IMG/VR virus record: IMGVR_UViG_2934543808_000001
Span: 32,001 to 96,000 of that record
Reading direction: 5' to 3' (one strand)
DNA from: a virus
Lineage: Duplodnaviria; Caudoviricetes
DNA length: 64,000 bases
Each line of letters begins with the position of its first letter. The stretch's first letter is position 1. Both the position numbers and the translations under genes were made by a program. Below are positions 7,341-45,420 of the stretch, piece after piece. Under the pieces are notes generated by a model. It did not search any database, was not told the DNA's origin, and saw only the letters and a list, made by a program, of their open reading frames with translations.

Positions 7341-7399
7341 GTCCCCTTTGGGTTGAGTTCGGAGCGTTTGTTGTCCGGCTCGCTCGTGCCGTCCAACAA
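7341..7399 (-). ncRNA. Structured leader A
   Basis: TTGTTGGACGGC-ACGAGCGA-GCCGGACAACAA-ACGCTCCG..AAAGGGGAC. Confidence 0.7.
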
Positions 7400-7401
7400 G
7401 G

Positions 7402-7432
7402 AAAACTGTACACCATGTCCGCCGATGGTCAA
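7402..7432 (-). promoter_or_regulatory. Promoter (TTGACC-16-TACAGT) overlapped by a GGAC-N4-TGTACA box
   Basis: Same box at 11382, 13250, 13337, 20686, 21633, 40366 and 45318 (inverted); variant at 34336. Confidence 0.6.
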
Positions 7433-8157
7433 CAGGGAACAGCGGCCCCGACTTCACGCAGGTGAGCAGCAGCAGCGCCCCGCGCACCGTCCCGGGACGG
7501 CACGGTCGCACGCCACCCGCACGAGCACGCGGCCACCGACGAACCGTCGTACATCCACCCGCTCTTCACCCCGACCGGGCCACCCGCCCAGCTCCCCCAG
7601 CGGTCCGCCGCACGCGACCAGCCGCGCGGCTCCGACGTCCGGGTCACGTGCCGGGCCTCCGGCGCGCACAGCAGCCGCAGCGCCGCGTCCGCCACGGCGG
7701 CCACCCTGTGTGTGTCCCACTGCTCCCCCTCCAGCCGGGCCGACAGCTCCACCCCGGCGGCCGAGGTGACCGTCAGCCGGCCGTCGGGCCACACCCGCGC
7801 GGACGCCCCGGGCACGCTCCACCCCACCGACCCGTCCGACTGCCGGGGCACCCCGTTGGCGTGGTTCCGGGTCATCCGGGCGACCAGCCGCACCGACCCC
7901 GGGGCCGCGCCCGGGTTCCGGTGGTCGGCCGCGCCCGGGGCGTACTCGGCGAGCGCAGCCAGCCACGCCCCGGCGTACGGGTACGCGGCCGGGCGCAGCG
8001 TCACCAGGGCCGCCCGGTCCCGCCCGTTGCCCGCCAGGACGGCGGCCCGCACGAACTCATGGCCGGGCGCGCCGCCGTACTTCCTCAGCCGCACCGGGCC
8101 GTGCGGCGTCTCGAACTCGGTCGTCTCACGGGGGGCGAGCAGCAACAGGCCGGGCAT
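7429..8157 (-). CDS. Hypothetical protein with C-terminal CxC..H motif
   Basis: GGAGG RBS; ACSCGW..AAAHL. Confidence 0.6.
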   Translation of the reverse strand: MPGLLLLAPRETTEFETPHGPVRLRKYGGAPGHEFVRAAVLAGNGRDRAALVTLRPAAYPYAGAWLAALAEYAPGAADHRNPGAAPGSVRLVARMTRNHANGVPRQSDGSVGWSVPGASARVWPDGRLTVTSAAGVELSARLEGEQWDTHRVAAVADAALRLLCAPEARHVTRTSEPRGWSRAADRWGSWAGGPVGVKSGWMYDGSSVAACSCGWRATVPSRDGARGAAAAHLREVGAAVPC

Positions 8158-8200
8158 GACGGTGTCCTCCAGGGCGACAGGGGTGAGCAGGGGGCGGGGG

Positions 8201-8842
8201 TCAGCAGGGCTGAGGGTGCACGCGCGCACGGGCCCGCTCCAGGACGGCGGCGCGCTGCTCCTCGGGTATGGGCAGGTAGTGAGCGGCGTAGTCGTACGGG
8301 CCGTCCCCCGGGGCCCGGAGCCGGTGAACAACGAGCGCTCCGCCCGGGTACGCGGCCGTCGGCTCGCTGATCTCGAACCGGACGCGGGTGCGGCCCATGC
8401 GGCGGACCCACACGTACGTCGTCCCGTCGTGCTCAGGCACGGCGTAGCGGGCCGGGCCGATGCTCAGCCGGTAGCGGGTGCACGCGGTTGGCACGGCCGG
8501 GTGGTCGTGCTCGCCCTTCCAGTGCCCGCACAGGGCACAGCACGGCGTGCGGGCCGGGCGCTCGCACGGCACGGCACGGAACACAGGGCCGAGGCGCCCG
8601 GGGACCATCCCGCCGATCTGCGGCCACGTGAACGTCACGGCGTCCGTGTCCGGCTCCAGGGCGGCGGCGCCCCCGCAGTGCAGCGCGGAGGCGAGCAGCG
8701 AGCGCACCAGGGCGCCGGAGACCGGGACGGCGGTGGCCGGGCGGTCGGCGTTGCTCAGGGCGTACGCGGTCCGGAAGGCGTCGAGCGGGCGGGCGATGGC
8801 GTACGGGATGGTGGGCAGTGCGACGGCAACGGCGGCGGGCAC
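8201..8842 (-). CDS. Cys/His-containing hypothetical protein (paralog of 14378-14863)
   Basis: GGAG RBS; CxxCxxWxxEH motif. Confidence 0.6.
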   Translation of the reverse strand: MPAAVAVALPTIPYAIARPLDAFRTAYALSNADRPATAVPVSGALVRSLLASALHCGGAAALEPDTDAVTFTWPQIGGMVPGRLGPVFRAVPCERPARTPCCALCGHWKGEHDHPAVPTACTRYRLSIGPARYAVPEHDGTTYVWVRRMGRTRVRFEISEPTAAYPGGALVVHRLRAPGDGPYDYAAHYLPIPEEQRAAVLERARARVHPQPC

Positions 8843-8904
8843 GGTGGTCTCCGTTCGGGGTTGGGCGCGGGGCGCGGCGGGCGCGCCCCGGGCCGGCTGA
8901 GGGG

Positions 8905-9414
8905 TCAGGGTTCTTCGCGGCGCAGCGTGACGCGGTGGGCTTCCTCGCGGCCCTGGTCGTACAGCTCGATCAGGCCGTCCGGGAAGTGCGTGGTGGTGGA
9001 CAGCCGGTACTCGGCGGCGCCGAGGGCGTACGCGGCCTGTCCGGCGGTGTGCGGCGCGTCGTCGGCACCCCAGACGGCCCACGGCCACATACCGCCGAGG
9101 AGGTACCGGCCGTGCGCGTCCGGCACCACGATGACCATGCGGCCCAACGCGTCGTAGTCGTCGGTCCACTGGAGCGTCAGGGTGCCGTCGGCGGCGAACG
9201 CGTAGCTCATGCACAGGTCGTCGCGGGCGACGTCGGCGGCGACCTGGGCGACGGTCTCCCTGGTGAACAGGTGCGGGGTGTCGTCGAACCACAGGGACGT
9301 GATGGGCAGTCCGACGTACGGGCCGAGTCCGGTCTCCGCGATGGTGAAGAGCTGGATGCTCAGGCGCGTTCCGTCCTCGTACGTGGCGTGCGGCATGGGC
9401 GGGATGCTGGTCAT
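8905..9414 (-). CDS. Hypothetical protein
   Basis: GGAAGGA RBS. Confidence 0.6.
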   Translation of the reverse strand: MTSIPPMPHATYEDGTRLSIQLFTIAETGLGPYVGLPITSLWFDDTPHLFTRETVAQVAADVARDDLCMSYAFAADGTLTLQWTDDYDALGRMVIVVPDAHGRYLLGGMWPWAVWGADDAPHTAGQAAYALGAAEYRLSTTTHFPDGLIELYDQGREEAHRVTLRREEP

Positions 9415-9510
9415 GACGTGTCGGTTCCTTCCGGATGGCGGGGAGGGTGCCAGAGGGCGGGGGCTTGCGGCCCGGGGCGCGGCGGTCACGCCCCGGGCCG
9501 GCTGCGGGAC

Positions 9511-10041
9511 TCAGCGGCGGCTCATGACGCCACGGGACGCGCGGGGCACACGGGCCACGGGCGCGGCGGCGGGGCGGGGCGCCGGTTCGGCCGGGGCGGC
9601 GCGCGCGTGCTCCGGCTCCGGCTCCTGCTGCGCGTCCCGCTCCACGGGCGGGGCGTAGCGGGTCATGATGCGGGCGATGGCGGCGGCGGCGTTCGCGTCC
9701 TCGGAGAACAGATCCCGCTCCCAGTACTCGAACGGCAGACCCCGCTTCTTCTCGTACTCGCCGAGGTACCCGAGGTCTCCCCACTCGGCGCCGAGCGGGA
9801 AGCCGGACAGGCACGTCCAGCCGTAGCCGTTCAGCGTCTCCGGGTCGATCTCGGTGACGACGATGTGGCCCCACGGGGAGTGGAAGACGATGCACGGCGC
9901 CTTGTCGGGCGCGGGGCGGGGCGTACGGGGCGCCAGGGCCCGCAGCACGCGCGCGCCCGGGTAGAAGTTGTGGCCGCGCAGCTTGCGCTGCGACTCGAAC
10001 ATCGGCATGTCGGACAGGGGGTGAAAGCGGGGGATGCGCAC
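9511..10041 (-). CDS. DUF2958-like protein
   Basis: FHSPWG..VTEIDPET..G...AEWG-x-LGYL pattern. Confidence 0.5.
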   Translation of the reverse strand: MRIPRFHPLSDMPMFESQRKLRGHNFYPGARVLRALAPRTPRPAPDKAPCIVFHSPWGHIVVTEIDPETLNGYGWTCLSGFPLGAEWGDLGYLGEYEKKRGLPFEYWERDLFSEDANAAAAIARIMTRYAPPVERDAQQEPEPEHARAAPAEPAPRPAAAPVARVPRASRGVMSRR

Positions 10042-10099
10042 GGACGTTCCGTTCTGGGGTCGGCGGCCCGGGGCGGTCGTGCCCCGGGCCGGCTGAGGG

Positions 10100-10483
10100 T
10101 CAGCGGCGGGGCGGGATGGCGGTGAAGCCCCGGTTGGCGGCGGCTTCCTCGGCGGTCGTGCGGTCGCGGTTGCTGGTGCCGATGAGCCGGTGACCCGCGT
10201 CGGTGATCAGGTGCGAGTCCAGTCCCCAAGGGCGGTCGAGCACGACCAGGACGTCACCGTTGTCGTCGGCCCGCGCGAACCCGGGCTCGGAGTTCACGGA
10301 CTCGGCGGTGATGCCGAGCTGTCGGGCCAGGTCGGCGCGGGCGGCGGCCAGGGTGGAGCCCCGGGCGACGAACCGGCCCAGCTCCAGGCGGTAGCCGTCG
10401 CCACGCTTGAGCGGGCGGCGCACGGTGACGCCCGGCAGGGGGACGGAGACGGTTTCGACGGTGGCGGGGGCGTATCCGGTCAC
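10100..10483 (-). CDS. Hypothetical protein
   Basis: GAAAGG RBS. Confidence 0.55.
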   Translation of the reverse strand: MTGYAPATVETVSVPLPGVTVRRPLKRGDGYRLELGRFVARGSTLAAARADLARQLGITAESVNSEPGFARADDNGDVLVVLDRPWGLDSHLITDAGHRLIGTSNRDRTTAEEAAANRGFTAIPPRR

Positions 10484-10567
10484 GGCGGTGGGCGCCTTTC
10501 TGGCGAGAGGGAAGCGGGGTTGGGGCCCGGGGCGCGGGAGGGCGCGCCCCGGGCCGGCTGGGGGCCG

Positions 10568-11311
10568 TCAGGCGGCGGCGGGCACGTCGTGCGAGAGGCC
10601 GAACGTCATCTGCGCCGTGCGCTGGTCCCCATCCCAGTGGACGAACGCCATCGGTGCGCCGCTGTACCAGTGGAGCCACAGCTCCAGCACCACGCCCGCG
10701 GCGCCGTATCCGGACTGGACGGTGTCGCCGACGGCGAAGCCGTACACGCCGCGCTCGCGCTCGATCTCGTCCGGCGCGGCCAGCCGCATCACGGGGTCGG
10801 TGACGACCGGCCAGCGTCCGGCCCACGCGATCGTCAGGGCGTCGTCTTCGACGGCGGTGACGGTGCCGCGCTGGATCACGGCGCGGGGTTCGGTGCCGTG
10901 CCGGTGGTCGGAGTCGTCGGGCAGGTGGATGAAGCTGCGGACCACCCGGTCCCCGGGGCGGTACTCGGCCGTGTGGCGCCCGTACACCCCGGCGGGAACG
11001 TGCTCGCGGGGGATGACCAGCGCGACGCCGTTCGAGGGCCACACGAGGGATTCGCCTTCCAGGGCGGTGTACCCGCCGGTGCTCACCGGGAGCGCGGGGA
11101 AGGCCGCGCAGCTCTGCATGGCCCAGCGCAGCCGCGCGGGGTCGGGCGCGCCGTCGTACGCGCCGAGCACCAGGTCACCGGGGCGCACGTCCAGGTTGGG
11201 GACGATGCGCAGTTGGCTCATGTCGGTGCCGGTGGGCGGCATCTCGTAGACGCCGTTGTCGGGCCGGTCCGCGACGATCAGCGGGTAGAACGTGACGTCG
11301 GTGACGCACAT
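10568..11311 (-). CDS. Hypothetical protein with repeated SH3/KOW-like PGD-x-V units
   Basis: VRPGDLV, YRPGDRV and FAVGDTV; start directly behind leader B. Confidence 0.6.
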   Translation of the reverse strand: MCVTDVTFYPLIVADRPDNGVYEMPPTGTDMSQLRIVPNLDVRPGDLVLGAYDGAPDPARLRWAMQSCAAFPALPVSTGGYTALEGESLVWPSNGVALVIPREHVPAGVYGRHTAEYRPGDRVVRSFIHLPDDSDHRHGTEPRAVIQRGTVTAVEDDALTIAWAGRWPVVTDPVMRLAAPDEIERERGVYGFAVGDTVQSGYGAAGVVLELWLHWYSGAPMAFVHWDGDQRTAQMTFGLSHDVPAAA

Positions 11312-11315
11312 GGGT

Positions 11316-11374
11316 GTCCCCTTCGGGTTGGTTCGGAGCGTTTGTTGGGGCGGCTCGCTCGTGCCGTCCAACAA
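11316..11374 (-). ncRNA. Structured leader B
   Basis: TTGTTGGACGGC-ACGAGCGA-GCCGCCCCAACAA-ACGCTCCG..GAAGGGGAC. Confidence 0.7.
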
Positions 11375-11443
11375 GGAAAACTGTACACCATGTCCGCCGG
11401 TGTTCGGTAGGGACCCCGGGCGAGTCCCTACCGGGACGCAGCG

Positions 11444-11965
11444 TCAGGAGCGGGCGCGGACGGCGGCAACGTCGCCCGGGTGTCCCGCAGCCGGCCCGCA
11501 GATACGGTTGCCCATCGTGCGGCAGTCCCACCCCGACTCGTCCTCGTCCACGACCCCGTCACGGTTGTCGTCGCCGAGCGCGTCAGCCTGACCGTCCACC
11601 CACCCGTCCACCCACGCGACCGTGCCCGGGTCGTCGCCGTCGGCCCGGACGTTCGGGTACGTGGGCGTGCGCCCGTCGCCGAGATCGGCCACGCCCGCCG
11701 TCCACCCGGCGTTGTAGGTGGCCACGATGTCCACGGCCGCGCCCTGAGCCGGCCGTGGGGCGTCCGGGTCCCTGCCCGTGCAGGAGGCGAACGGGCCCGG
11801 GTCGCCGCGCCACTCGACGCCGACGGAGCACCCGGGCGTGCCGACGGTCGCCCCAGCGTTCGCGCCGTTGTAGAAGGTGGTCGCCGACGCGGCCACGAGG
11901 AGCAGGCCGGTCGCGACGGCGGCGGCCACGGCGGCGCGCGCCCGGCGGGTGAGAGAGCGGGTCAT
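11444..11965 (-). CDS. Secreted hypothetical protein with Asp-rich DxNxDG loop
   Basis: Signal peptide; DDNRDGVVDEDESGWDC. Confidence 0.6.
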   Translation of the reverse strand: MTRSLTRRARAAVAAAVATGLLLVAASATTFYNGANAGATVGTPGCSVGVEWRGDPGPFASCTGRDPDAPRPAQGAAVDIVATYNAGWTAGVADLGDGRTPTYPNVRADGDDPGTVAWVDGWVDGQADALGDDNRDGVVDEDESGWDCRTMGNRICGPAAGHPGDVAAVRARS

Positions 11966-12034
11966 GACGGGGTTCTCCGATCGTGGGAAGGGCGGGGCGC
12001 GGCGGGGGTGCCGCGCCCCGGGGAGCAGCAGGGG

Positions 12035-12718
12035 CTACGCGGGGACGGCGGCGGCCGTGCGGCGGGTCAGCATCTCGGCGGCCCGCTCGCGCGCCGTGGG
12101 CAGGTCCGGCGCGGCGGGGGACAGCACCTCGTACGTGTGGGTGCGGCGGCGGTCGCCGTGCCGCGTCCAGCCGTTGACCGTGCTCCAGGCGTGACCGCGC
12201 GGGTTCCGGCAGGGGTGCGACTCCTGCCGACTCGGGTCGGTGGCCCGGGGCGCGCACACCGTGCAGTCCCACCCCAGCGCGTGAGCGTTCCCCCCGCCGT
12301 ACGTGCCGTCCGGGTTGATCACGGCCGCGATGTAGACGCGCCCGATCTCCACGGGGGCGTTCTCCGGGAGCGGCAGGCCCATAGCGCGCGCGGCGTCCAG
12401 CTCGGCGAGCGCCCGGCGGTACTCGGCGTGCGCCGCCTTCTCCCACCCCCACAAGCGCGCGTCCTCCATCACGGCCCGCGCCTCCCGGTACCGGTCCAGC
12501 GCCACGACGGGCGCCGTGACGTAGGCCAGCAGACCGGCGGGGGTGATGCACCAGCGCTCATCCGGGTCCAACACCAAGTCGCGCGGGGTGATGACGCTCC
12601 CGCACGGGCAGTGAAAGCGACCGTCCGCCCCAACGGCGAAGTGGTTCGTGCAGCACTCGGCGCAGACGATGACGGTCACGAGTTCGGGCAGTTCGGGGGC
12701 GCGGTCGATCGCGGGCAT
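12035..12718 (-). CDS. Cys-rich (Zn-binding) hypothetical protein
   Basis: CAECC..CPCG and CTVC motifs; GGAG RBS. Confidence 0.6.
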   Translation of the reverse strand: MPAIDRAPELPELVTVIVCAECCTNHFAVGADGRFHCPCGSVITPRDLVLDPDERWCITPAGLLAYVTAPVVALDRYREARAVMEDARLWGWEKAAHAEYRRALAELDAARAMGLPLPENAPVEIGRVYIAAVINPDGTYGGGNAHALGWDCTVCAPRATDPSRQESHPCRNPRGHAWSTVNGWTRHGDRRRTHTYEVLSPAAPDLPTARERAAEMLTRRTAAAVPA

Positions 12719-12822
12719 GGCTGATCTCCAGTCGGGGCGTAGCGGGGTGAGCGTGGGAGGGCCGGGCGGCCGGTGAGGGGGGAGTGCCGACCGCCCGGCC
12801 GGCTGAGGGGCGCAGCGGTGAG

Positions 12823-13152
12823 CTACGCGGCGGGGGCGTACTCGGCGGTGCGCTTGTAGGTGTTCAGCGCGATCTCCAGCGCCGGGTCACCCGGCTGGTA
12901 CTGGAAGACGTCCCGGAGTCGGCCGTTCACGCGGCGCTTGGTGGTCTGCGGGTCGGTGCCGCCGTGGGCCGTGCGGTACGCCTTCGCGGCGTGCTTGCCG
13001 AACGGGGAGGCGTAGCGCTTCACGAACTCCGGCTCGTAGCCCCGGGAGCGCAGGAAGGGCTTCACGGTGTGCGGCCGGTTCACGCGGCGGCGGTTGCGGA
13101 GTCGGGCGGTGAGTACGCGGCGGTGGGCGCGGCGGGTGGCGGCAGCAGACAC
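12823..13152 (-). CDS. Small basic protein, possibly nucleic-acid binding
   Basis: Arg/Lys rich; first gene of the leftward unit, behind leader C. Confidence 0.6.
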   Translation of the reverse strand: MSAAATRRAHRRVLTARLRNRRRVNRPHTVKPFLRSRGYEPEFVKRYASPFGKHAAKAYRTAHGGTDPQTTKRRVNGRLRDVFQYQPGDPALEIALNTYKRTAEYAPAA

Positions 13153-13156
13153 AGAG

Positions 13157-13209
13157 GTCCCCTTTGATCCGGAGCGTTCGGCGTGACGGTCGCTCGTCCG
13201 TCACTGCCG
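13157..13209 (-). ncRNA. Structured leader C
   Basis: GTGACGG-ACGAGCGA-CCGTCAC..AACGCTCCG..AAAGGGGAC. Confidence 0.7.
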
Positions 13210-13224
13210 TTCGGTGCAAGCACC

Positions 13225-13352
13225 ACTCTACATGACCACAGCTCGCATGTGTACACCCTGTCCGCCAAGAGTTGAGCGAGCCCGTTCCAGCTCACTCCCT
13301 ATAGAGGGGTTGAGAAGTGGGGGGTTGCGCATCGCCGGACATGGTGTACAGT
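13225..13352. promoter_or_regulatory. Divergent promoter region with two operator-like boxes
   Basis: Leftward TAGAGT -10; rightward TTGCGC-16-TACAGT; boxes at 13250-13263 and 13337-13350. Confidence 0.6.
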
Positions 13353-13358
13353 TCCTCT

Positions 13359-13419
13359 TGTTGGTCGGCACGAGCGAGCCGCACCGACACCAACGCTCCG
13401 AACCCAACCCGAAGGGGAC
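13359..13419 (+). ncRNA. Structured leader D
   Basis: TGTTGGTCGGC-ACGAGCGA-GCCGCACCGACA..AACGCTCCG..GAAGGGGAC. Confidence 0.7.
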
Positions 13420-13423
13420 ACCC

Positions 13424-14161
13424 ATGTCCGTCACCCTGGCCAAGCCCAGCGACACCGCGACCGAGAGCGAAGAGGTCGACTACATCGCCCCGGCCCGCGT
13501 GTTCATCGCGGTCGCCCAGCTCCCCGACGGCCGCGTGAGCGGCGTGGACCTCTACGCCAACGCCCCCGCCGCCGACGAAGTCCTTCCCGCCACCGTGTGG
13601 ACCGTCGCGGTCCCCGACGCGGACGACGTGTACGGCTCCGCCGCCGCCAAGGTTCTCGACCTGGCGCTCACCAGCGGCTACCGCGACACCGACGGGCACG
13701 GCTGGGCCGAGGGAGAGCGCACGGCCCGCGCCTTCCACGGCGACCACACCGACGAGCGGGCGTTCCTCCGCACCGTCGAAGCGCTGCTCATCCGCGCGGG
13801 CTACCTCGACGCGCACGCCGGCCTCGTGCACTGCCGGGGGTACGGGCTGCGCGTCGGTGACGACGACGTGGTCATGAAGTGGGCCGAAGGCTGGAAGTGG
13901 GCCGCGCTCGACTCCACCGACATGGACGGCTGGTGCTTGCAGCCCGGAGTACTCGCCCCCGCCGACGCCTCCCCCCAGCGCGTCGCCAACGCCATCATCC
14001 TCAACCTCGCCTGCCTCGGTTACCTCCCCTGGACGGACATGCGACTGCGCGACCGCGCCCGCGTCTACGTCCGCACCTTCGGATGGCGCGCCCGGCTCCA
14101 GCGCATCACCTACCGGGCCACCCGCTTCCGCCGCACCGTCCGGGCCCGCATCACCCGCTGA
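13424..14161 (+). CDS. Hypothetical protein
   Basis: ATG behind leader D; first gene of the rightward unit. Confidence 0.65.
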   Translation: MSVTLAKPSDTATESEEVDYIAPARVFIAVAQLPDGRVSGVDLYANAPAADEVLPATVWTVAVPDADDVYGSAAAKVLDLALTSGYRDTDGHGWAEGERTARAFHGDHTDERAFLRTVEALLIRAGYLDAHAGLVHCRGYGLRVGDDDVVMKWAEGWKWAALDSTDMDGWCLQPGVLAPADASPQRVANAIILNLACLGYLPWTDMRLRDRARVYVRTFGWRARLQRITYRATRFRRTVRARITR

Positions 14162-14377
14162 ACCCCGGCTGGGGCGCACCGCACCCCCCGGTGCGCCCCA
14201 GCCGGCCCCGGGACCCCCGCGCGCGCGTGGGACGGTCTCACGGGTTCCACGAACGCCCCTTTGCGCTGGTCACAGCGTTGCCCCCTCGTCGCACGGTTGA
14301 CCCCGTTCGGGTCTCGTCCGGGGAGTCTCGGGCCCCTTCCTCTCCTTCTCCCGCCCTACCCCTTGCCTGGAGTTCTC

Positions 14378-14863
14378 GTGTTCTTCGCTGACCCCACGCC
14401 GTCCACCATCGGTGAGTTCCGTCTGTGCGACCCCCGTGAGGCGACGTTCGCCGCGTACTCGGTCGACGCGTCCCCGGTCTCGGCTGTCGTCCCCGGTATG
14501 GAGTCCCGCCCCATGTCCGGCGGTCTGCTGCGCGCCCAGTTGGTCAACGCCCGGCAGTGCGGCGGCTCCATCGTCCTGGACGACCTGAGCGGCACCGTGG
14601 CGTTCACCTACGCGTCCGGCACCTTCCACCGCATGGTGCAGGTGGCCACGCCGCTCACCTCGTCCATCCCCCTGTGCGGGACGTGCGACCAGTGGGAGAG
14701 CGAGCACCGCAACCCGAACGCGGCGGCGTGCGACCGGTTCGACGTCGATCCCCGTCCGGGCACGGCCGCGAACCCCCTGTGTCTCCGTGAGGAGTGCGGC
14801 GGCTACCCGCGTACGCACCACGGGCGCCCCTTCACGGTGGCGTGCCACTCCTTCGAGGGCTGA
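14378..14863 (+). CDS. Cys/His-rich hypothetical protein (paralog of 8201-8842)
   Basis: GGAG RBS; CGTCDQWESEH. Confidence 0.6.
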   Translation: MFFADPTPSTIGEFRLCDPREATFAAYSVDASPVSAVVPGMESRPMSGGLLRAQLVNARQCGGSIVLDDLSGTVAFTYASGTFHRMVQVATPLTSSIPLCGTCDQWESEHRNPNAAACDRFDVDPRPGTAANPLCLREECGGYPRTHHGRPFTVACHSFEG

Positions 14864-14968
14864 CGGCCGGTCGTCCGGCGTGTCCGCATCGAGCCGCGGC
14901 GCCTTGGTCGCGGCCCGGTGCGGGGATGCACGAGCGCCCCGCCCGCCTATGACCCTTCGGAGGTCTGC

Positions 14969-15109: not shown

Positions 15110-15284
15110 TCCGTCCGCCGGCCGGGGCGCGCACTCCCGCCGCCCCGGCCCGTTCCTCCCGCTTCCGCTGCTCCCCGCTCTCGTCCGCGCCGCCGCCCGT
15201 CTCGGCCGTGTGCAGGACGCGCCGTAAGCGAGTCCGCCGGGCCATCATCCGCGCCCGTGAACCACTGAACCTCTGGAGTTCCCC

Positions 15285-37764: not shown

Positions 37765-37826
37765 GGAGGGGGCCTTTCAACGCAGAGGGGGAGGCCGGCC
37801 CGCGGGGCGCGGGCCGGCCGGGGCGG

Positions 37827-38750
37827 TCAGGAGAAGAGCAACCGCCAGGTGAGCGGACCGGGCAGGCCGTCCGCGTCGCCGCGCAGCTCCTTGCGGGAGA
37901 GCTGGAAGGCACGGACGTTCAGGCGGTCGGCGTCGCCCCAGTCCTCGGAGGGGCCGACGCGGTAGTGCTTGCCGAAGCCCTTCGCGACCAGGCGCTCGCC
38001 GAGCTGCTTGATGTACTTGTTCTTCTTGCCGGGGCCGAACTTGTCGCGGCCGGGGAACGCCGGGGGCGTCGGCTTCGGCTTCGGCTTGGTGGTCGAGCCG
38101 CCGCCGGTGGACGGCTTGGTGCCGGCGACGATCGCCTTGGCCTTGGCCAGGATCTTGGCGAACGGGATGTTCCCGGGGTCGCCGTGGACGTTCTCCGGGG
38201 CGTGGAGGTGGCCGCAGATGCCCTTGAAGGCGTTCCACTCGGAGAAGGTCATGCGCGCGCTGGTGGCGCCGTACGAGGACGGGTAGGCGGGCCACTCCGA
38301 CGGGCCGCTCAGCGGGATGCCCATGTTCTTGTGCATCCAGGCGATGAGGTCGGCGAGCGCGTCGTAGGCCCACTCCGGGGCGTCGGGCCAGTAGATGTAG
38401 TCGACGCCCGCCTTGAGCTTGCCCCAGGTCTTCTTGTGCGAGGGGTCGCAGGTGCCGATCAGTTCGAGCTGGATGACGTTGAGGGTGTTCGTCTCGACGC
38501 CCCCGGCCTTGTTGACCAGGGCGCGCGCCGACCGGTTCAGCGCGAAGTGCTGGTAGACGTCGAAGCCCTTCTTCGTGAAGTTGGGCTTCGCGGTGAGGTT
38601 CGGGGCCTCGGCGCCGTTGCTGTAGGAGACGATGCCGGTCCCCTCGGTGGTGTGCAGGGCGAGGACGTTGGGGTCCATCAGGTCGCCCTCGTACGTGTCG
38701 CCGTACCAGTGCGTGCCGCGGATCGCGCCCGGGTAGAGGGTGGTGGCCAT
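37827..38750 (-). CDS. Endolysin: N-acetylmuramoyl-L-alanine amidase-type with PG-binding domain
   Basis: LHTTEG, IQLELIG, GHLHAPENVHGDPG; FQ..ADGLPGPLTW. Confidence 0.85.
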   Translation of the reverse strand: MATTLYPGAIRGTHWYGDTYEGDLMDPNVLALHTTEGTGIVSYSNGAEAPNLTAKPNFTKKGFDVYQHFALNRSARALVNKAGGVETNTLNVIQLELIGTCDPSHKKTWGKLKAGVDYIYWPDAPEWAYDALADLIAWMHKNMGIPLSGPSEWPAYPSSYGATSARMTFSEWNAFKGICGHLHAPENVHGDPGNIPFAKILAKAKAIVAGTKPSTGGGSTTKPKPKPTPPAFPGRDKFGPGKKNKYIKQLGERLVAKGFGKHYRVGPSEDWGDADRLNVRAFQLSRKELRGDADGLPGPLTWRLLFS

Positions 38751-38807
38751 GTGTGCTTCCTCCGGAGCTGGTGAGCAGGGGGGAAGCACCGTGCGGGGCG
38801 GGGGGCG

Positions 38808-38820
38808 CTAGCGTCCCGGG
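38808..38820 (-). promoter_or_regulatory. Late-gene box upstream of endolysin
   Basis: CCCGGGACGCTAG. Confidence 0.55.
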
Positions 38821-38821
38821 C

Positions 38822-39430
38822 TCACTCGGCGCCCGGCACGTCTTGGTCCTGGTCGTCGTCCGGGTACTGGAGCGCGTGCAGCGTCTCGGCGAGCCGTGTG
38901 GCGAGGTCGGCCGAGGGGCCGGTGTTCTCGACGGCGACCGGGCCCCCGGCCGCGCCGGTCAGCTCGACCTCCAGGTGGTCTTCCTTGCCGTACTGCTTGC
39001 GGTGCTGCCGCTCCAGGTACCAGGCCGCCGCCCTCCAGTCCGGCGGCGTCGTGATCGTCTCCTCCAGCACCTTGCCCGAGTGCGGGTCGAACTTCCTGTG
39101 GGTGGTGACGATGCCGCCGCGGCTGGCGCGGCGGATGTCGAGGGCGGCCGAGAGGGCGGCGGAGGCGCGGGCACGCTCGACCTTCTCGAAGAACTCCACG
39201 AAGTGGTCGAGGTCGGGGTCGGGGTCGTTGCCGGCCGCGCGGTCGACGGCCTCGGTGCGGCCGTAGGCCATCCAGCGCAGGAAGGTGGCGCGGCTGATGC
39301 CCGCGTTGACGGCCGCCAGGTCCACGGCGAGGCCGGCGCGGGACGCCTCGACCAGGCGCGTCTCGACCTCCGGCGTCAGGAGCCGGGTACGCGCCGCGGC
39401 TTGGGAGCGGCGGACTTTGCGGCTGGGCAT
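38822..39430 (-). CDS. Terminase small subunit-like HTH protein
   Basis: AGISRATFLRW; DWRAAAWYLER; VELTGAAGGPV. Confidence 0.65.
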   Translation of the reverse strand: MPSRKVRRSQAAARTRLLTPEVETRLVEASRAGLAVDLAAVNAGISRATFLRWMAYGRTEAVDRAAGNDPDPDLDHFVEFFEKVERARASAALSAALDIRRASRGGIVTTHRKFDPHSGKVLEETITTPPDWRAAAWYLERQHRKQYGKEDHLEVELTGAAGGPVAVENTGPSADLATRLAETLHALQYPDDDQDQDVPGAE

Positions 39431-39457
39431 GGCGGGGACCGTAGATCGACTGCCGGG

Positions 39458-40090
39458 TTACTGTCCCGGGCTGAACAGGTGGCCGCAGGCCGGGCAGCAG
39501 ACGGAGCCGGAGCGTTCGTTGTCGCCGCTGTCGCCGTATCCGTCGTCGGTGAAGTCCTCGCCGAGCATGTCCCGCTCCGGCGTCTCGGTGCCGTCCGGTC
39601 CCTGCGGCAGGCCCTCGGGGTCGACCTCCCGCAGCAGTTGCTCCATCTCGTCGTCGGAGATGCACAGGGAGTCGAACAGGTCGGCGTCGGAGGTCGCCAG
39701 CTCTTCCAGGATCGCGGCGAGGGCTCGGGAGTCCCATCCGCCTGCCATCGGCAGCCGGTTGAGGAGGATGAGCACGGCGTGGGCCTGGCGGTCGCTGGCG
39801 GAGGCCCAGCCGCGGGTGACGGGGACCAGCCATCCGCCGTCGTCGTCCAGGAGCAGGCCGTCAGGGATGGGCTCGCCGCGGACCTGCATCTCTATCAGCG
39901 CTTCGCGGCGGCCGTGGCCTGCGATCACCAGGCTGGTGCGCTCGTCCACGACGGGGGTGTCGATGAACCCGTGGTCCTTGATCGAGGCGATGATCCGCTC
40001 GATCTCATGCTTCTTGGGGTTCGCCGGGTCCGGGGGGAGATCGGTGAGCGGGATGTAGCTGATGTAGCGGGGGGCGGCGAGTCCGGTCAC
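39458..40090 (-). CDS. ParB/Srx N-terminal domain protein with C-terminal CPxC
   Basis: NPKKH..SI..HGF..PVVD..VIAGHGRREA. Confidence 0.8.
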   Translation of the reverse strand: MTGLAAPRYISYIPLTDLPPDPANPKKHEIERIIASIKDHGFIDTPVVDERTSLVIAGHGRREALIEMQVRGEPIPDGLLLDDDGGWLVPVTRGWASASDRQAHAVLILLNRLPMAGGWDSRALAAILEELATSDADLFDSLCISDDEMEQLLREVDPEGLPQGPDGTETPERDMLGEDFTDDGYGDSGDNERSGSVCCPACGHLFSPGQ

Positions 40091-40388
40091 GGCTGCTCCT
40101 GTCGCGCAGCTCGGGCCGGGGGTGAGGAGCGGCCGTTGGTCAGCGAGCCCGCGGACTTCAACCGCGGCGCCCCGGCTCGCTACCGGGACATGCCGTCATG
40201 GCCGGACCGTCGGGCCGCTCCTCGGCCGGCGCCGCCCCACGTGTCCGGACGGGGCTGCGCCGGGGCCCGCGTGGCGAGTTCGGCGGGTGCGCGTTCCACC
40301 GGTCGTCTCTCGGGCCGGGCGGAAGGAACTCATCCCGTCGCGGTTTCTGTCCTGGCCCGTGATCCGGACATGGTGTACAGTCCCCGTT

Positions 40389-40522
40389 TGTGGCCGCACG
40401 AGCGAGCAGCCACACCCGGTCTGGTGTAACGAATTCCGGCCTCACTCCGTCCATAGGGCGGAAGGCCACCAGCGCCAGACCTTCAACGCTCCAAAGCCGG
40501 GTCACCGGCAAACCAGAGAGGT
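40389..40522 (+). ncRNA. Structured leader G (with inserted hairpin domain)
   Basis: TGTGGCCGC-ACGAGCGA-GCAGCCACA; GGTCTGG..CCAGACC insert; AACGCTCC. Confidence 0.6.
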
Positions 40523-40531
40523 ACGTACGCG

Positions 40532-41092
40532 ATGCCCGAGACGGACAACGCACCGACGGTCGGTCAGAGCGACCTGGCGCTGAGGGCTGCGGTGGCCTAC
40601 CGCGTGAAGAAGCGTGTCGCCGAGATCTGCGACCCGGTCATCGAGGAGAACGCCGAGCACATCCGGAACACGAAGGGCACCCGCAGCCTGTCGGCCGAGA
40701 TGCCCCTTGCCGAGGGCGGCACCCAGCCGCTCGGCACCTTCACCCGGACGATGGCGAAGGCGAAGTTCCGCATCGAGGACCGGAAGAAGGTGCTCGACTA
40801 CGCCGACGCGCTGGAAGAGACCGAGTACGTCATCCGCCCCTCCTTCGAGAAGGCGCTCCTGAGCCGCCTGGTCTGGAAGGACTCCCAGGTGATCGACACG
40901 GCCACCGGCGAGATCGTGGAGGGCATCAGCTACGACCCGGGCGGCCTGACCGACACCGTCAGCCCGAAGTGGAACGACGCCGGCATGGAGGCCCTGGACG
41001 CCCTGCTCGGCTTCGTTGACGCGGCGCTGGAGAACCTGCCCCACCTGACGGCGGACGACTTCGCCCTTCCGGTGCTGGAGGCGGGCGAATGA
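40532..41092 (+). CDS. Hypothetical phage protein
   Basis: Behind leader G; VIDTATGEIVEGI motif. Confidence 0.7.
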   Translation: MPETDNAPTVGQSDLALRAAVAYRVKKRVAEICDPVIEENAEHIRNTKGTRSLSAEMPLAEGGTQPLGTFTRTMAKAKFRIEDRKKVLDYADALEETEYVIRPSFEKALLSRLVWKDSQVIDTATGEIVEGISYDPGGLTDTVSPKWNDAGMEALDALLGFVDAALENLPHLTADDFALPVLEAGE

Positions 41093-41394
41093 TCCCCGCG
41101 TTCATGACCGAGTCGCCGTGCTCGCGCATCGACCCCGAGGCGATGTTCCCGGCCCCGTCGGACACGGCGGCCATCGCCTTCGCCAAGGAGCAGGTCTGCG
41201 GCACCTGCCACTTCCGGGCCCAGTGCCTGGAGTGGGCCATCAGCCCGTTCAGCCGCTCCGAGTACGGCATCTTCGGCGGCCACACCGAGGACGAGCGCCG
41301 CGACCTGGTCAAGGCCCGGAAGCTCGCCAAGCCGGTGCGCCTGAACTACGGGCCGCTGCCGCCCAAGCACCAGCGCCTCTCGGCCGCCGCCTGA
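41089..41394 (+). CDS. WhiB-family transcription factor
   Basis: C..DPEAMF..VCGTC..QCLEWA..GIFGGHTEDER. Confidence 0.92.
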   Translation: MIPAFMTESPCSRIDPEAMFPAPSDTAAIAFAKEQVCGTCHFRAQCLEWAISPFSRSEYGIFGGHTEDERRDLVKARKLAKPVRLNYGPLPPKHQRLSAAA

Positions 41395-41460
41395 TCGCCC
41401 GCACGCTTCTGCCCGCCCCGCACCCCGCGCGGGGGCGGGCACCTCTCGCAAGGAACCACC

Positions 41461-41787
41461 GTGATCCCCAGCGACACCCGCTTGGCGCTGATCGACCAGG
41501 CCACCGACAAGGCCGACGAGTCACCTGACGAACTCAGCCCGGAGACCCTGACCGCGTTCGTGCGGCACCTGCGGCGCAACGACCTCGACGTACGCGAGTG
41601 GCACCGCTGCGACGACTTCGCCGCGTCGGCCGGCATGACCCACCACCAGGCCCGCCGGGCGGTCGGACAGCTCGTCCGTGCCGGCCTGCTGGACCGGGAC
41701 GTCGTGCCGCGCCGCGTCCGCCGTCAGGACGGCCGGTACACCGTCTACCGCCTGTCGCCCAGCGCCATGGAAGGGGCAGGCCAGTGA
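41461..41787 (+). CDS. Winged-HTH protein
   Basis: FAASAGMTHHQARRAVGQLVRAGLL. Confidence 0.6.
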   Translation: MIPSDTRLALIDQATDKADESPDELSPETLTAFVRHLRRNDLDVREWHRCDDFAASAGMTHHQARRAVGQLVRAGLLDRDVVPRRVRRQDGRYTVYRLSPSAMEGAGQ

Positions 41788-43019
41788 GCAGCCACGAGAT
41801 GGACGAGCTGGACGAGCAGTTCGAGGTCGTCATCGGCCGCAAGGCGCCCTTCTCCATGATCCCGGACTGGGTGACCCTGTACCCGGGGAGCAAGTCCTCC
41901 CCGATGTACGCGGGGAAGATCCTGTCCCCGACCGCGAAGGCCGTCTACAACGTGCTGGCGATGCACGTGAACGTCTCGCGAGGGGACAGCGCATGCTGGC
42001 CCTCCCGCAAGACCATCGCGCAGATCCTCGGCTTCTCCCGTGAGCAGTCCGTCGACCAGTACCTCGACCAGCTCGATGAGGTCGACGCCATCGACCGCGA
42101 GCCGATCACCCGCGCCAACGGCGCGAAGGGCGTGCGCTACATCGTGCACCAGACGCCGCCCAGCGACTTCGAGGGCGAGCAGAGCGTGGGCGAGCACTAC
42201 AAGCACCGCCGCGCCATCGAGGCGGCGAAGCTGACCCGCTCCCCGGGCCGCCCCCGAAAGACGGAGGCCGCCGACGTCGAGCAGCCCCCGCTCGCCGTGA
42301 CCGAGGTCGAGGCGGAGCCGCAGGAGAGCCCCGCGGACGCGCTCGTGCGCACGACCGTTGACGAGTGGTGGGCACAGGCGGAGGAGCGGGTCGTCCTCGG
42401 CGAGATGGACCCGCTCGGCACCGACCGGCAGAAGGAGCGTGCGCGCGGCAACCTGGTGGCACGCGTCCGGGACGCGGTCGCCACCGGCCACGACCCGGAG
42501 CTGATCAAGCTGGCGCTGCGCGAACTCGGCGAGTGGGGCCCCGCGAAGGCCAAGTTCGAACGAGCGCTCAAGACGTACAAGGACAAGACGCCCGAAGACA
42601 TCGAACTCGACAAGCAGGCGCAGAGCGGCGCCAAGAAGTGGTGGGCCGAGGCCGAGACGCGGGTCGCCGACAAGAAGATGGGCCCGCTCCTCGCCGACAC
42701 CAAGAGGCAGGAGACCGGCTACTACCTCAACCTCCGCACCCGCATCCGGGAGGCCCTGAAGGCGGGATACGACCGCTGGATCATCTGGGACGCCCTGGTG
42801 GAGCTGGGCGAGTGGTCGCCCGCGAAGCGCGAGTTCGACCGCACCCTGCGCCGGCTGTCCGGCGTGCGGCAGCCCCGAGGGGCCCGCGGAGGCCGGGCGC
42901 CGCTGTTCACCAACGACCAGTGGAAGCAGAAAGATCCGCCACCGCAGAGCGGAGCCCCCGACGTTCCGACCGCACCCGACCTGAGCGTGTTCGGTGTCCA
43001 GTCCGATGACGCCGCCTGA
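41784..43019 (+). CDS. Phage replication initiator-like HTH protein with duplicated C-domain
   Basis: LSPTAKAVY..CWPSRKTIAQILG; lies upstream of a DnaC-like gene. Confidence 0.75.
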   Translation: MSSHEMDELDEQFEVVIGRKAPFSMIPDWVTLYPGSKSSPMYAGKILSPTAKAVYNVLAMHVNVSRGDSACWPSRKTIAQILGFSREQSVDQYLDQLDEVDAIDREPITRANGAKGVRYIVHQTPPSDFEGEQSVGEHYKHRRAIEAAKLTRSPGRPRKTEAADVEQPPLAVTEVEAEPQESPADALVRTTVDEWWAQAEERVVLGEMDPLGTDRQKERARGNLVARVRDAVATGHDPELIKLALRELGEWGPAKAKFERALKTYKDKTPEDIELDKQAQSGAKKWWAEAETRVADKKMGPLLADTKRQETGYYLNLRTRIREALKAGYDRWIIWDALVELGEWSPAKREFDRTLRRLSGVRQPRGARGGRAPLFTNDQWKQKDPPPQSGAPDVPTAPDLSVFGVQSDDAA

Positions 43020-43038
43020 CGAGAGGAGGACCGACGAC

Positions 43039-43845
43039 ATGTCCCTCACCATGACCGCCCCAGCGATCCCGGAGACCCGGCAGGTGGTGCGCGCGGACGG
43101 CCCCATAGCCGCGGTCGCGAGCATCCTGCGGCGCCGCGGGATGGACCCCGGCAAGGCGGCGCTGACCGAGGACCGCCCGGACAGCACGGACGAGTACCAG
43201 CGGGAGGTGTACCGGCAGGCGTGGGTGAACTCGCTGCGCCTGTCCGGGCACGACGACTACGCCCGCTTCACCCTCGCCAAGCTGCACGCGGATCAGTTCC
43301 CCGACCACGTGCGCACCTACGTGGACAAGTGCGTGGAGGCGCGGGCCCTCAACCGCGAGCAGGAAAAGCTCCCGGAGGACGAGCGGGAGATCGTCCGGCC
43401 GACGATCCAGCACCTGATCCTGCACGGCTCGACCGGCACCAGGAAGACGGCCACCGCCGCCGCGGCCGGCGCGTACGCCGTGGAGCGCGGCCTGATGACC
43501 CGCTTCGTCTCGCACTCGAAGTATCTGGGCTGGCTCCGGCCGGACAGCGCGCCTGCCGGGCTCACGCGGACGCAGATCCTGGAGCGCTACGAGCGGTGCG
43601 ACGTGCTGATCCTGGACGACCTGTGCGAGGAGATGGACGAGTACGCCACCAACCACGTCCGGACGCTCACCAACAACCTGATCACGGCACGCGCCAACAA
43701 GGGTCGCGGGACGATCTTCACGACGAACCTGAACTTCGACCAGGTCGAGGTCGTTCTCGGCGAGCGCCTGGCGTCCCGGATCGGCGGCCGGGCGCTGCCG
43801 CTCAAGCTCGTCGGCGACGACGCCCGAAAGCCGCAAAGGTGGTGA
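43039..43845 (+). CDS. DnaC/IstB-like ATPase (helicase loader)
   Basis: GSTGTRKT, DVLILDDL, IFTTNL..GERLASRI..GDDAR. Confidence 0.85.
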   Translation: MSLTMTAPAIPETRQVVRADGPIAAVASILRRRGMDPGKAALTEDRPDSTDEYQREVYRQAWVNSLRLSGHDDYARFTLAKLHADQFPDHVRTYVDKCVEARALNREQEKLPEDEREIVRPTIQHLILHGSTGTRKTATAAAAGAYAVERGLMTRFVSHSKYLGWLRPDSAPAGLTRTQILERYERCDVLILDDLCEEMDEYATNHVRTLTNNLITARANKGRGTIFTTNLNFDQVEVVLGERLASRIGGRALPLKLVGDDARKPQRW

Positions 43846-43921
43846 ATGGCGCGGATTCCACTGGTGCGTCGAAAGGGTCACGCCCACCAAGCGGAAGGTG
43901 ATCTAGTCTGTCCGGGACCGG

Positions 43922-43964
43922 TGCGCTCACGAGCGAGAGCGCAGCGCCAACGCTCCTGGAGGAC
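43922..43964 (+). ncRNA. Structured leader H (minimal)
   Basis: TGCGCTC-ACGAGCGA-GAGCGCA..AACGCTCC-T-GGAGGAC. Confidence 0.7.
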
Positions 43965-43970
43965 AGCTTC

Positions 43971-45221
43971 GTGGCCCGACCCCTATCGACGGCGCGCTTC
44001 GCGACCATGTCCGAGGCGGAGATCCGAGCAGCCGAACGCACACTGATTGCAGGGACCTGGGCGATCACGGCCGGGGCCCTGCTCTTCAGCGTGCTCACCG
44101 TCACCCCGCTCGTCCGGTCGGTCAGTCCTCCGGGCTGGGAGTGGACGGCCCCCATCCTCCCGCTCGTCGTGGACGCCGCGGTGATCATCGTGGTGAAGCT
44201 CGACTCCGTCATCTCCCGGCTCGGCGGCGAGGGCGGCGCGTGGCCGGTGTTCCTGCGGTGGATGACCGGCCTGATGACGCTCGCCCTCAACATCGGCGAC
44301 AGCGCCCTGCACCACGACTGGGTGGGCATGGCCGTCCACTCGGTGGCCCCGCTCCTGCTGATCGTCACCGCGGAAGCCGGCCTGTCGTACCGGCGCGCCA
44401 TCAGCGGGGCCCTGGCGCGCATCGCTCGCGAGGAGGCGGAGGCGGCCGAGCGGGAGCGCGCGGAGCGCGAGGCGCAGGCGCAGGCCGACCGGGAGGAGCG
44501 GGAGCGGGCGCGTGCCGCCGAGGAGCAGGCCGAGCGGGACGCTCGCGAGCACGCCGCCAAGCTGGAGCGGGAGCGAGCGGAGCGTGAGGAGGCCCGGCTT
44601 GCCGCCGAGCGCGAGCACGCCCTGGCCGTGGAGAAGGAGCGCTCCGCCCGTGAGCGGGCCGAGCGGGACGCCGCCTTGGAGCAGGAGAAGGCGGCCCGCG
44701 AGTTCACCGCGCGCATGGAGCGGGAGCGGGCCGAGCGGGACGCCGCCGAGCGCCGCCGCCAGGAGGAGCGCGCCGACCGGGAGCGGCGCGAGAAGGCGGC
44801 CCGCGAGGACGAGGAGCGCCGGCGGGCGGACCGGGAGCGGCAGTTGGCGAAGGTGGCCACCACCGCGGCGGTTCCTGCCCCCGGGCGGCGCGTCGCCCCG
44901 GCGAAGGCTACTGGGGGGACGGGCCGCGTCGTGACGGCCGTCGTCATGGACAACGAGTTCGCCGGCATGACGAAGGACAAGGCGGAGGAGGCCCTGTTCG
45001 AGCTGTACCGCGCGGCGCGGGACGCGAGCACGTACGACGACTGGGAGCAGGACCCGCTCGCGCGGCCGGGCGGGGAGTTCTGCGGCAGCAACCTGGGCCG
45101 GCGGCTGGGCCGCTCGGACACTTCGGGCCGCACCAAGGTGAAGCCGAAGTTCGAGCGCTGGTACCAGGAGCACAAGGAGAAGGCTGCGGCCGAGGGCGGC
45201 GTGCTGGTCGGCGTGGGCTGA
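43971..45221 (+). CDS. DUF2637-like membrane protein with long coiled coil
   Basis: APILPLVVD, TLALNI and HSVAPLLL TM motifs; ERERA repeats; behind leader H. Confidence 0.7.
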   Translation: MARPLSTARFATMSEAEIRAAERTLIAGTWAITAGALLFSVLTVTPLVRSVSPPGWEWTAPILPLVVDAAVIIVVKLDSVISRLGGEGGAWPVFLRWMTGLMTLALNIGDSALHHDWVGMAVHSVAPLLLIVTAEAGLSYRRAISGALARIAREEAEAAERERAEREAQAQADREERERARAAEEQAERDAREHAAKLERERAEREEARLAAEREHALAVEKERSARERAERDAALEQEKAAREFTARMERERAERDAAERRRQEERADRERREKAAREDEERRRADRERQLAKVATTAAVPAPGRRVAPAKATGGTGRVVTAVVMDNEFAGMTKDKAEEALFELYRAARDASTYDDWEQDPLARPGGEFCGSNLGRRLGRSDTSGRTKVKPKFERWYQEHKEKAAAEGGVLVGVG

Positions 45222-45365
45222 GCGCGCAAGCAGCAACTGCGGCGGGTGTCCCGGAGAACGGGGCGCCCGCCGCAGTCGTGTCTGGGCTCGACGCAAGCGA
45301 TAGACCACATGGTAAACTGTACACAGTGTCCGGAAGGGATCTAAGCCCTTCCGACGGCACACCAT

Positions 45366-45420
45366 GCCCCGGTACGAGCAAGCCGCGGGCGCCAACGCTC
45401 CGAAGTCAGCCCAGGAGGAC
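45366..45420 (+). ncRNA. Structured leader I
   Basis: GCCCCGGT-ACGAGCAA-GCCGCGGGC..AACGCTCCG..AGGAGGAC. Confidence 0.6.

Follow-up and report, generated by a model that had tools for sequence, protein, structure and literature searches.

A Repeated Covarying Leader Hairpin at the Head of Early Transcription Units in a Streptomyces Phage-Plasmid, with an Arginine-Rich Protein as Candidate Partner

Introduction

Several described systems come close to the RNA element presented here. GNRA-type loops are the kind read by N peptides on boxB, which itself has a GNRA-like fold; the T4 RegA regulon and the coat-protein operators offer comparable examples of translational control; and the rpsO/S15 operator and the preQ1-I and guanidine-III riboswitches are leaders that form an H-type pseudoknot. 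Little is known of how Streptomyces phages and phage-plasmids control their genes. Our literature searches (on the motif strings, boxB antitermination in Streptomyces phages, phage-plasmids and the leaders of early promoters) returned nothing relevant, and no RNA-based early-gene regulon of this kind was found for Streptomyces phages or phage-plasmids. Here we analyse a stretch of 64,000 nucleotides (nt), termed the window, which represents bases 32001-96000 of the 134,012-bp IMG/VR virus record IMGVR_UViG_2934543808_000001 with direct terminal repeats, and describe a short structured leader RNA that recurs in it ahead of early genes. A preliminary description of this DNA had listed nine such leaders and had read them as a switch built on a pseudoknot and an anti-Shine-Dalgarno tail. 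Positions refer to the window unless the genome, meaning the whole record, is named.

The closest published analogue comes from Cluster K mycobacteriophages. There, start-associated sequences (SAS) are 13-bp sequences containing the Shine-Dalgarno (SD) site at 3-7 bp from the start codon, and the inverted repeats termed extended SAS (ESAS) are conserved in sequence, with departures that according to the authors do not support RNA pairing (PMC3203893).

A Covarying Hairpin with a Fixed Loop and a Fixed Box

Each leader is composed of a stem of variable sequence, the loop ACGAGC(G/A)A and a downstream box AACGCTCC, and lies in an intergenic region on the sense strand of the next gene. All nine copies were recovered at the places first listed for them, both by sequence and by hits of R1, a covariance model built from 16 sequences. 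Nine is the number for the window; the loop-then-box combination is present 11 times in the whole record, with the two further copies at genome positions 14368 (+) and 17243 (+). Within the window, the loop ACGAGCGA was counted 13 times against 4.6 expected, a number reached in 0 of 100 shuffles, and AACGCTCC 14 times against 2.6 expected (0 of 100 shuffles had as many). Extra AACGCTCC sites at 25398, 31166, 35706, 39509 and 48446, and at genome 100074 and 130649, have neither hairpin nor leader context. Within 13-39 nt, every copy is followed by an SD-like site and an open frame on the same strand.

Covariation was measured on 122 hits, which reduce to 70 distinct sequences and come from at least 10 related Streptomyces elements. 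All four inner, loop-closing pairs of the stem covary (65 double-change cells, 98.2% paired), a result that none of 500 shuffles equalled and that collapses in slid controls. G-U and U-G cells outnumber non-pairs in the stem by 14 to 5, an excess that fits selection on the sense-strand RNA. On the other hand, GAGC of the loop and CGCTC of the box are invariant in 70 of 70 distinct sequences, and most copies have AA at the end of the linker between them (61 and 67 of 70).

The shape of the hairpin was determined by a regular-expression scan that gave 115 distinct contexts, 76 of which were kept and folded individually; left out were chance hits on 33 non-Streptomyces or coding loci and five named coding or atypical hits, including that on contig L015 discussed below. 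The stems quoted in the preliminary description proved correct as cores, while the full hairpins comprise 6-14 enclosing pairs with a mean of 10.1. Their mean energy is -17.2 kcal/mol against -9.1 in flank shuffles, and 98.7% reach -12 kcal/mol or stronger against 22.6%, although this control is weak since GC-rich flanks pair anyway. Within this lineage just one variant of the loop is common, a change of G7 to A, so that GCGA or GCAA, both GNRA-type sequences, is present in 72 of the 76 loops. An A/C-rich linker and AACGCUCC come next, without a run of T, so the hairpin does not have the form of an intrinsic terminator or attenuator.

The view of the leader as a structured sense-strand module used across the element is thus borne out by a hairpin that truly covaries. 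That it belongs to no described family also holds within Rfam 15, where the whole window gave 0 matches at the gathering score and the leader regions, searched up to E = 10, gave chance-level matches alone (E ≥ 1.2, far below gathering). A possible pairing with 16S rRNA was dropped, as the host 16S sequence has one ACGAGCG and three GGAGCG, numbers within chance for 6- to 7-mers.

The Leader Copies and the Genes behind Them

Three copies in the window lie on the minus strand. The first (7358-7403; R1 score 51.8 bits) forms the hairpin TTGTTGgaCGGC/GCCGgaCAACAA with loop ACGAGCGA and box AACGCTCC, has a GGTGTACAGT box upstream and precedes an open reading frame (ORF) of 368 amino acids (aa) at 6230-7336. 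The second (11332-11378; 54.8 bits) likewise follows a GGTGTACAGT box and precedes a 247-aa ORF (10568-11311). The third (13168-13213; 42.3 bits), with the stem GTGACGG/CCGTCAC, follows a different -10-like hexamer, TAGAGT, and heads the gene of an arginine-rich (Arg-rich) protein of 109 aa.

On the plus strand, the copies at 13354-13402 (59.4 bits) and 20703-20748 (51.8 bits) both follow a GGTGTACAGT box and precede ORFs of 245 aa (13424-14161) and 270 aa (20769-21581), and the copy at 21650-21696 (51.9 bits; stem GGTCGGC/GCCGACC) follows GGTGTACACC and precedes a 329-aa ORF (21712-22701). The copy at 40382-40495 has its loop at 40398 and its box AACGCTCC at 40485, separated by an insert of about 65 nt which, as the preliminary description had noticed, pairs with itself; in the predicted fold it forms a domain of its own beside the hairpin (z = -3.66). 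It lies ahead of a 186-aa ORF (40532-41092) matching the PHROG for Mu Gam-like proteins (E = 1.9e-5). At 43913-43959 (39.8 bits; stem TGCGCTC/GAGCGCA) the box abuts the SD (CGCTCCTGGAGGA) and the gene encodes a 416-aa membrane protein (43971-45221) matching phrog_25954, whose orthologue in plasmid NZ_CP107821.1 is annotated DUF2637. The last copy (45358-45404; 44.8 bits) carries the loop variant ACGAGCAA at 45374, confirming an early observation, and precedes a recombinase gene of the ERF family (45429-47000; Pfam ERF, E = 1.2e-13).

Only three of the nine downstream proteins can therefore be named (ERF, Gam-like and the phrog_25954 membrane protein), and the other six have no Pfam or PHROG match. 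The earlier statement that the leaders precede early, replication or recombination genes thus draws in part on gene position. Outside the window, a short unannotated ORF (MPRVSAISSG...; genome 17275-17416, and 83747-83884 in NZ_CP107821.1) comes next after the copy at genome 17243, and behind it lies a 652-aa gene whose orthologue is annotated as an FtsK/SpoIIIE domain protein.

Unit Heads, Promoter Boxes and Intergenic Hairpins

Leader copies head about 11 of roughly 60 early genes, and each of these genes is the first in its unit. The distance from the end of the box to the start codon is 13-29 nt in 74 of 75 instances, picked by fold criteria. In the longer leaders, the extra hairpins are found upstream of the element and never between the element and the SD.

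A conserved DNA box, CGGACnnGGTGTACA(GT), is present 11 times in the window against 0.5 expected, for example at 7407-7414, 11382-11389 and 13250-13257 on the minus strand and at 13343-13350, 20692-20699, 21639-21646 and 40372-40379 on the plus strand. Six of the 11 genome copies of the leader directly follow this box (also written GGTGTACA), which there overlaps a -10-like TACAGT, and in the promoter of the Arg-rich gene it occupies a -35-like position. This box is probably a module distinct from the RNA element, acting as operator or promoter. Ahead of the remaining copies stand different -10-like hexamers, with one copy lacking a recognisable promoter, and the leader is thus independent of promoter type.

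Early genes are also punctuated by strong hairpins. A hairpin of -28 kcal/mol or stronger is found in 21 of 31 co-directional early intergenic gaps, compared with 3 of 31 length-matched coding controls, and a T-rich tail accompanies only two of the hairpins in these 31 gaps. The gaps lie at 2909-25926 and 37765-45428, where the GC hairpins are very stable and mostly without a T tract; a scan of positions 1-20000 for consensus terminators gave 3 sites against 3.8 expected. Terminators without U tails have reportedly been seen in phiC31.

The Element and its Relatives

The GC content of the window is 66-75% in 2-kb windows, and close relatives of the record are Streptomyces contigs and plasmids, 125-138 kb in length where whole records are available. 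A megablast search with positions 13000-23000 matched five Streptomyces plasmids among plasmid records and had no match among phage records. One relative annotated by the Prokaryotic Genome Annotation Pipeline (PGAP), NZ_CP107821.1, is a circular plasmid encoding ParA/ParB, a sigma-70-family sigma factor, WhiB, ERF and DUF2637. In the record itself, an ORF scan shows long minus-strand genes clustered beyond 80 kb, a block that we presume to be the structural region, and PHROG matches to an endolysin and a small terminase are found near it. The record is a phage-plasmid, given its plasmid relatives with ParA/ParB, the endolysin and small-terminase matches and the presumed structural block. This block also holds a single open frame of 6,652 aa on the minus strand (genome 108741-128699), which runs from position 76741 to beyond the end of the window.

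Full-model R1 hits (E ≤ 1e-4) number about 9, about 10 and 3 in three related viral records. Five whole Streptomyces genomes, in each of which the best 150 of about 17,000-20,000 first-look candidates were scored, hold 5-9 copies each, all on a single element contig of about 130 kb. NZ_CP107821.1 has 11 hits: nine sit 15-45 nt upstream of an annotated same-strand coding sequence (CDS) start, a tenth is separated from the FtsK/SpoIIIE gene by 139 nt that include a small unannotated ORF, and downstream of the weakest (E = 0.029) there is no CDS on its strand.

Two single copies were seen elsewhere. On a chromosomal contig of another Streptomyces (L133:1501-1548) there is a perfect copy with a 9-bp stem, a ACGAGCGA loop and a AACGCTCCGAA box, outside any 130-kb element and ahead of a 70-aa membrane protein; the same genome has, on another contig, a divergent homologue of the domain of the Arg-rich protein with a less Arg-rich N-terminus. 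The other is a divergent copy in a 41-kb IMG/VR contig of lower GC (L015:2640-2725), where ACGAGCGA falls outside any hairpin loop, GAGCG has CGCUC on both sides, and AACGCTCCGAAC ... GGGGAC ATG follows downstream. No homologue of the Arg-rich protein was found in the L015 record.

A Sister Lineage with a Different Loop and Box

Close homologues of the Arg-rich protein are encoded on two plasmids from PLSDB, NZ_CP070374.1 (E = 1e-46) and NZ_CP122459.1 (E = 8.5e-42), and R1 gave no hit on either. Both carry seven copies of another motif, CACAGCGAA, which is absent from the present genome and whose reversed-pattern control occurs in neither sister plasmid. All 14 copies form a hairpin loop and all eight pairs of the stem covary, with 42 double-change cells and 0 of 500 shuffles as high. 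The sister leader consists of the loop CACAGCGA, an invariant CACACAC tract, and then the SD and start codon; in two copies the hairpin abuts the SD and CACACAC lies between the SD and the ATG. Loop CACAGCGA and box CACACAC are not mutually complementary, nor are they boxA-like. One copy heads the Arg-rich gene in each plasmid, and an analogous DNA box, TCCGTACTGTATGG, is present as well. Two further plasmids of the group have neither the Arg-rich protein nor such a motif.

Both lineages keep the covarying hairpin, the AGCGA that makes up the 3′ part of the loop, a single-stranded box rich in C and A, a position at the 5′ end of early units and the copy ahead of the Arg-rich gene. A loop and a box that are fixed around a free stem, that are specific to the element, and that change together from one lineage to the other, point to recognition by a factor which the element itself would encode.

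An Arg-Rich Protein as Candidate Partner

The Arg-rich gene lies at 12823-13152 on the minus strand, directly behind the leader copy at 13168-13213 in a divergent early control region, and is found behind the same copy in eight of nine elements examined. An alignment of the protein shows R7, R8, R11, R12, R19, R21 and R26 to be invariant. Its family has 121 representatives among 1.84 billion proteins, of which 23 sequences were retrieved and 21 aligned. AlphaFold2 predicts an N-terminal helix (residues 3-24) followed by a small alpha/beta domain, with a predicted local distance difference test (pLDDT) value of 88.3.

Searches for known relatives were negative: the protein has no Pfam or PHROG match and no sequence match in the PDB, residues 1-30 have none among PDB sequences up to E = 10, a Foldseek search of the model against the PDB gave 0 matches at E ≤ 0.001, and a wide VIA-align search gave a best Z of 4.1 with none at 5 or above. 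An atlas look-up scored only unnamed actinobacterial clusters high; the nearest named entry, KilAC/ANT, scored 0.82 and is only a lead, and ANT was not recovered by Pfam on 22 family members up to E = 1. Among the 53 early-region ORFs, obtained with a crude gene caller based on GC content at third codon positions (GC3) that misses some genes (for instance at 7400-8904), searches of Pfam (15 families) and of PHROGs (25 of 49 inspected) gave no known RNA-binding or antiterminator family. By its composition, its position and its co-occurrence with the leader, the Arg-rich protein is a candidate trans-acting partner of the hairpin.

Docking Site, Operator or Switch?

A regulatory protein probably docks at the leader, and the reading that we tentatively prefer is that of a boxB/nut-like docking site for a protein active in antitermination. 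The transcripts of about eleven early units would carry at their 5′ end an RNA signal whose hairpin presents the fixed 8-nt loop on a free stem, followed by the fixed single-stranded box. An element-encoded RNA-binding protein, for which the Arg-rich 109-aa protein is the best candidate, would recognise the loop on the nascent transcript and, once bound, would let RNA polymerase read through the strong GC hairpins without U tails that lie after most early genes. The sequences show the covarying hairpin, the constancy of loop and box, where the element sits and its link to the Arg-rich gene in both lineages; that a protein binds, which protein this is, and that it acts on termination rather than on translation is what we infer. 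This reading is preferred because each unit has a single copy, placed at its head, and GC hairpins follow most early genes, and also because the Arg-rich gene lies at the divergent control region within the same regulon and the conserved part of the loop is of GNRA type. Independence from promoter type and the confinement of the scored hits in five genomes to the element contig also speak for it, as does the boxA match given below, which the sister lineage weakens.

Several observations weigh against it. A nut site needs no coupling to a ribosome-binding site, whereas the box nearly always ends at the short distance from the start codon given above, and some units, those of the copies at 20703 and 43913, consist of a single gene. 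The box CGCUCCGA (also written AACGCUCCGAAC) matches lambda boxA, CGCUCUUA (PMC2724277), at 6 of 8 positions, and the boxA of Aquifex has C at position 6 (PMC3177189). In the sister lineage CACACAC replaces this boxA-like box, and because the sister box differs though the host genus is the same, the resemblance is probably not functional. The U-less hairpins of the early gaps are, moreover, putative terminators. As for the protein, lambda N is disordered, while the Arg-rich protein is confidently folded, and searches of Pfam, PHROG and PDB sequences gave it no match to N. Ten of the 121 representatives, chosen for length, were scanned with Pfam, and in three of them its domain follows Bro-N or P22_AR_N, which hints at an antirepressor-type or DNA-binding role and suggests that the family is a modular, antirepressor-associated domain. 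Furthermore, more distant homologues of the Arg-rich protein in three viral contigs of 17-82 kb, 78-82-kb phages among them, have neither a ACGAGCGA leader nor an evident repeat of a loop motif nearby.

A translational operator or enhancer would make use of the same parts. Here a phage protein, possibly the Arg-rich one, or a host protein would bind the hairpin and box 5′ of the SD and repress or activate the first cistron, an explanation that we rate not far behind the preferred one. The spacing just mentioned favours it, as do the 12 of 76 copies in which the SD begins 0-2 nt past the box, the position of extra hairpins upstream of the element with none between it and the SD, and the two sister copies in which the hairpin abuts the SD. 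The nine of 11 NZ_CP107821.1 hits lying close upstream of a CDS start point the same way, and the copy ahead of the Arg-rich gene fits autoregulation. Against this, the element stands before the first gene of a unit and not before internal cistrons, though most units are multi-gene and a signal at the cistron level would be expected inside operons too; nor is there a known family of translational repressors among the 53 early-region proteins.

It is unlikely that the hairpin is a 5′-end stabiliser or processing signal, guarding the mRNA from 5′ decay or marking a site of cleavage by a host or phage RNase. In the GGTGTACAGT-type copies it does start about 6-8 nt after the -10-like hexamer, at what would be the 5′ end of the RNA, and the early genes have hairpins on their 3′ side as well. 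Protection, however, needs neither an invariant 8-nt loop nor an invariant box; in other copies the hairpin is 12-45 nt from the putative start, and upstream of one group of copies there is no conserved promoter.

Slightly less probable still is a switch in cis, in which an H-type pseudoknot between loop GAGCG and box CGCUC alternates with the extended hairpin under the control of a ligand, temperature or a protein. The invariant cores are perfectly complementary over 4-5 nt and RNAalifold picks the GAGCG:CGCUC helix because it is invariant; the AA at the end of the linker, the tolerated self-folded insert and the arrangement in the L015 contig, with CGCUC on both sides of GAGCG, would suit such a fold. 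The switchable pseudoknot first put forward for this leader is not supported: four of its pairs are invariant and thus uninformative, none of the five covaries, and in 14 of 68 sequences the fifth is unpaired, with A for G and no compensation. Because the full hairpin leaves only 0-7 nt before CGCUC (mode 2, and at most 4 nt in 61 of 76), geometry would make hairpin and pseudoknot mutually exclusive. The accompanying idea that CTCC of the tail pairs with the SD cannot hold in general, as in the 12 of 76 copies just counted an SD-like tetramer starts 0-2 nt after the box and the pairing is impossible. The sister lineage, which keeps the architecture without complementarity of loop and box, speaks against such a basis for a switch, and the Rfam search up to E = 10 gave no riboswitch match. 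Of the four options originally offered, the two with a bound protein, a nut-like site and a translational operator, remain the best, and there is no positive evidence for a riboswitch or an antisense target.

A site acting at the DNA level (operator, hairpin promoter or nicking site) is very improbable: the copies are oriented with transcription, as DNA stoperators also are (PMC3203893 draws the contrast with SAS), and the separate box CGGACnnGGTGTACA adjoins many of them, but the stems vary freely with compensation and leave no fixed double-stranded sequence, the G-U wobbles are on the sense strand only, the spacing of loop and box is variable, up to the 65-nt insert, and the distance to the start codon varies as well, unlike that of a -35/-10 element.

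To return to the docking-site reading, its widest form is also uncertain, and we rate it as possible at best: the first processive antitermination of N/nut type in Actinobacteria, composed of an unrelated folded Arg-rich protein, a hairpin with an 8-nt loop, about 11 sites per genome and at least two specificity variants, which would be the orthogonal RNA-protein pairs with loop ACGAGCGA and box AACGCUCC on one side and loop CACAGCGA and box CACACAC on the other. The motif is compact, restricted to the element and strongly covarying, and its two lineage versions are tied to one small protein. Since such a compact motif is linked to a conserved protein, whether the two pair, and how this acts on transcription or translation, can be tested directly. 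If the N-like view is true, processive antitermination by an Arg-rich peptide would extend to high-GC Gram-positive bacteria, and the orthogonal pairs that would control the early programme of large Streptomyces phage-plasmids could serve as orthogonal parts for Streptomyces engineering.

Comparison with Known Systems

The leaders with an H-type pseudoknot share with the present one a small hairpin, a loop complementary to a 3′ tail near the SD, and an A-rich linker. They differ in that no second helix covaries here, the fifth pair is often broken, the complementarity is absent from the sister lineage and Rfam has no match.

The SAS/ESAS repeats are also multi-copy, in one orientation, restricted to non-structural genes of an actinobacteriophage, placed just upstream of starts and absent from the host (PMC3203893). 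In our leader, by contrast, the stem is free and covarying with no conserved sequence, the conservation is in a loop and a box that lie 5′ of the SD, with the box 13-29 nt from the start, and it is the heads of units that are marked.

The leaders of rrn operons, with their boxB-boxA-boxC antitermination signals, have the same order of a hairpin followed by a single-stranded box. The host rrn leader reads CGTTCCTTGAGAACTCAAC, and the copy at 7358-7403 continues CGCTCC-GAACTCAAC. This resemblance is limited to one subgroup, the GAACYCAAC part being confined to GGTGTACAGT-type copies, and the invariant box is CGCUCC and not the CGUUCCUU of the host.

Lambda N/nut has 2 sites, against about 11 per genome here. 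In the present system the hairpin stands before the box, the order known from rrn leaders, and the loop is 8 nt long where that of lambda has 5. The U-rich half of boxA is missing from the box, which in the sister lineage is CACACAC; the protein is folded, no similarity to N can be detected in it, and every site is tightly coupled to a start codon. What the two systems share is a promoter-proximal hairpin with a fixed loop on a free stem, whose pairs covary (four of four here and eight of eight in the sister lineage); a single-stranded box beginning CGCUC, with the partial match noted above to lambda boxA (CGCUCUUA / UGCUCUUUA, bound by NusB-NusE); operons punctuated by terminator-like hairpins; and a small basic protein with an Arg-rich helix, encoded behind one of the sites at a divergent early control region.

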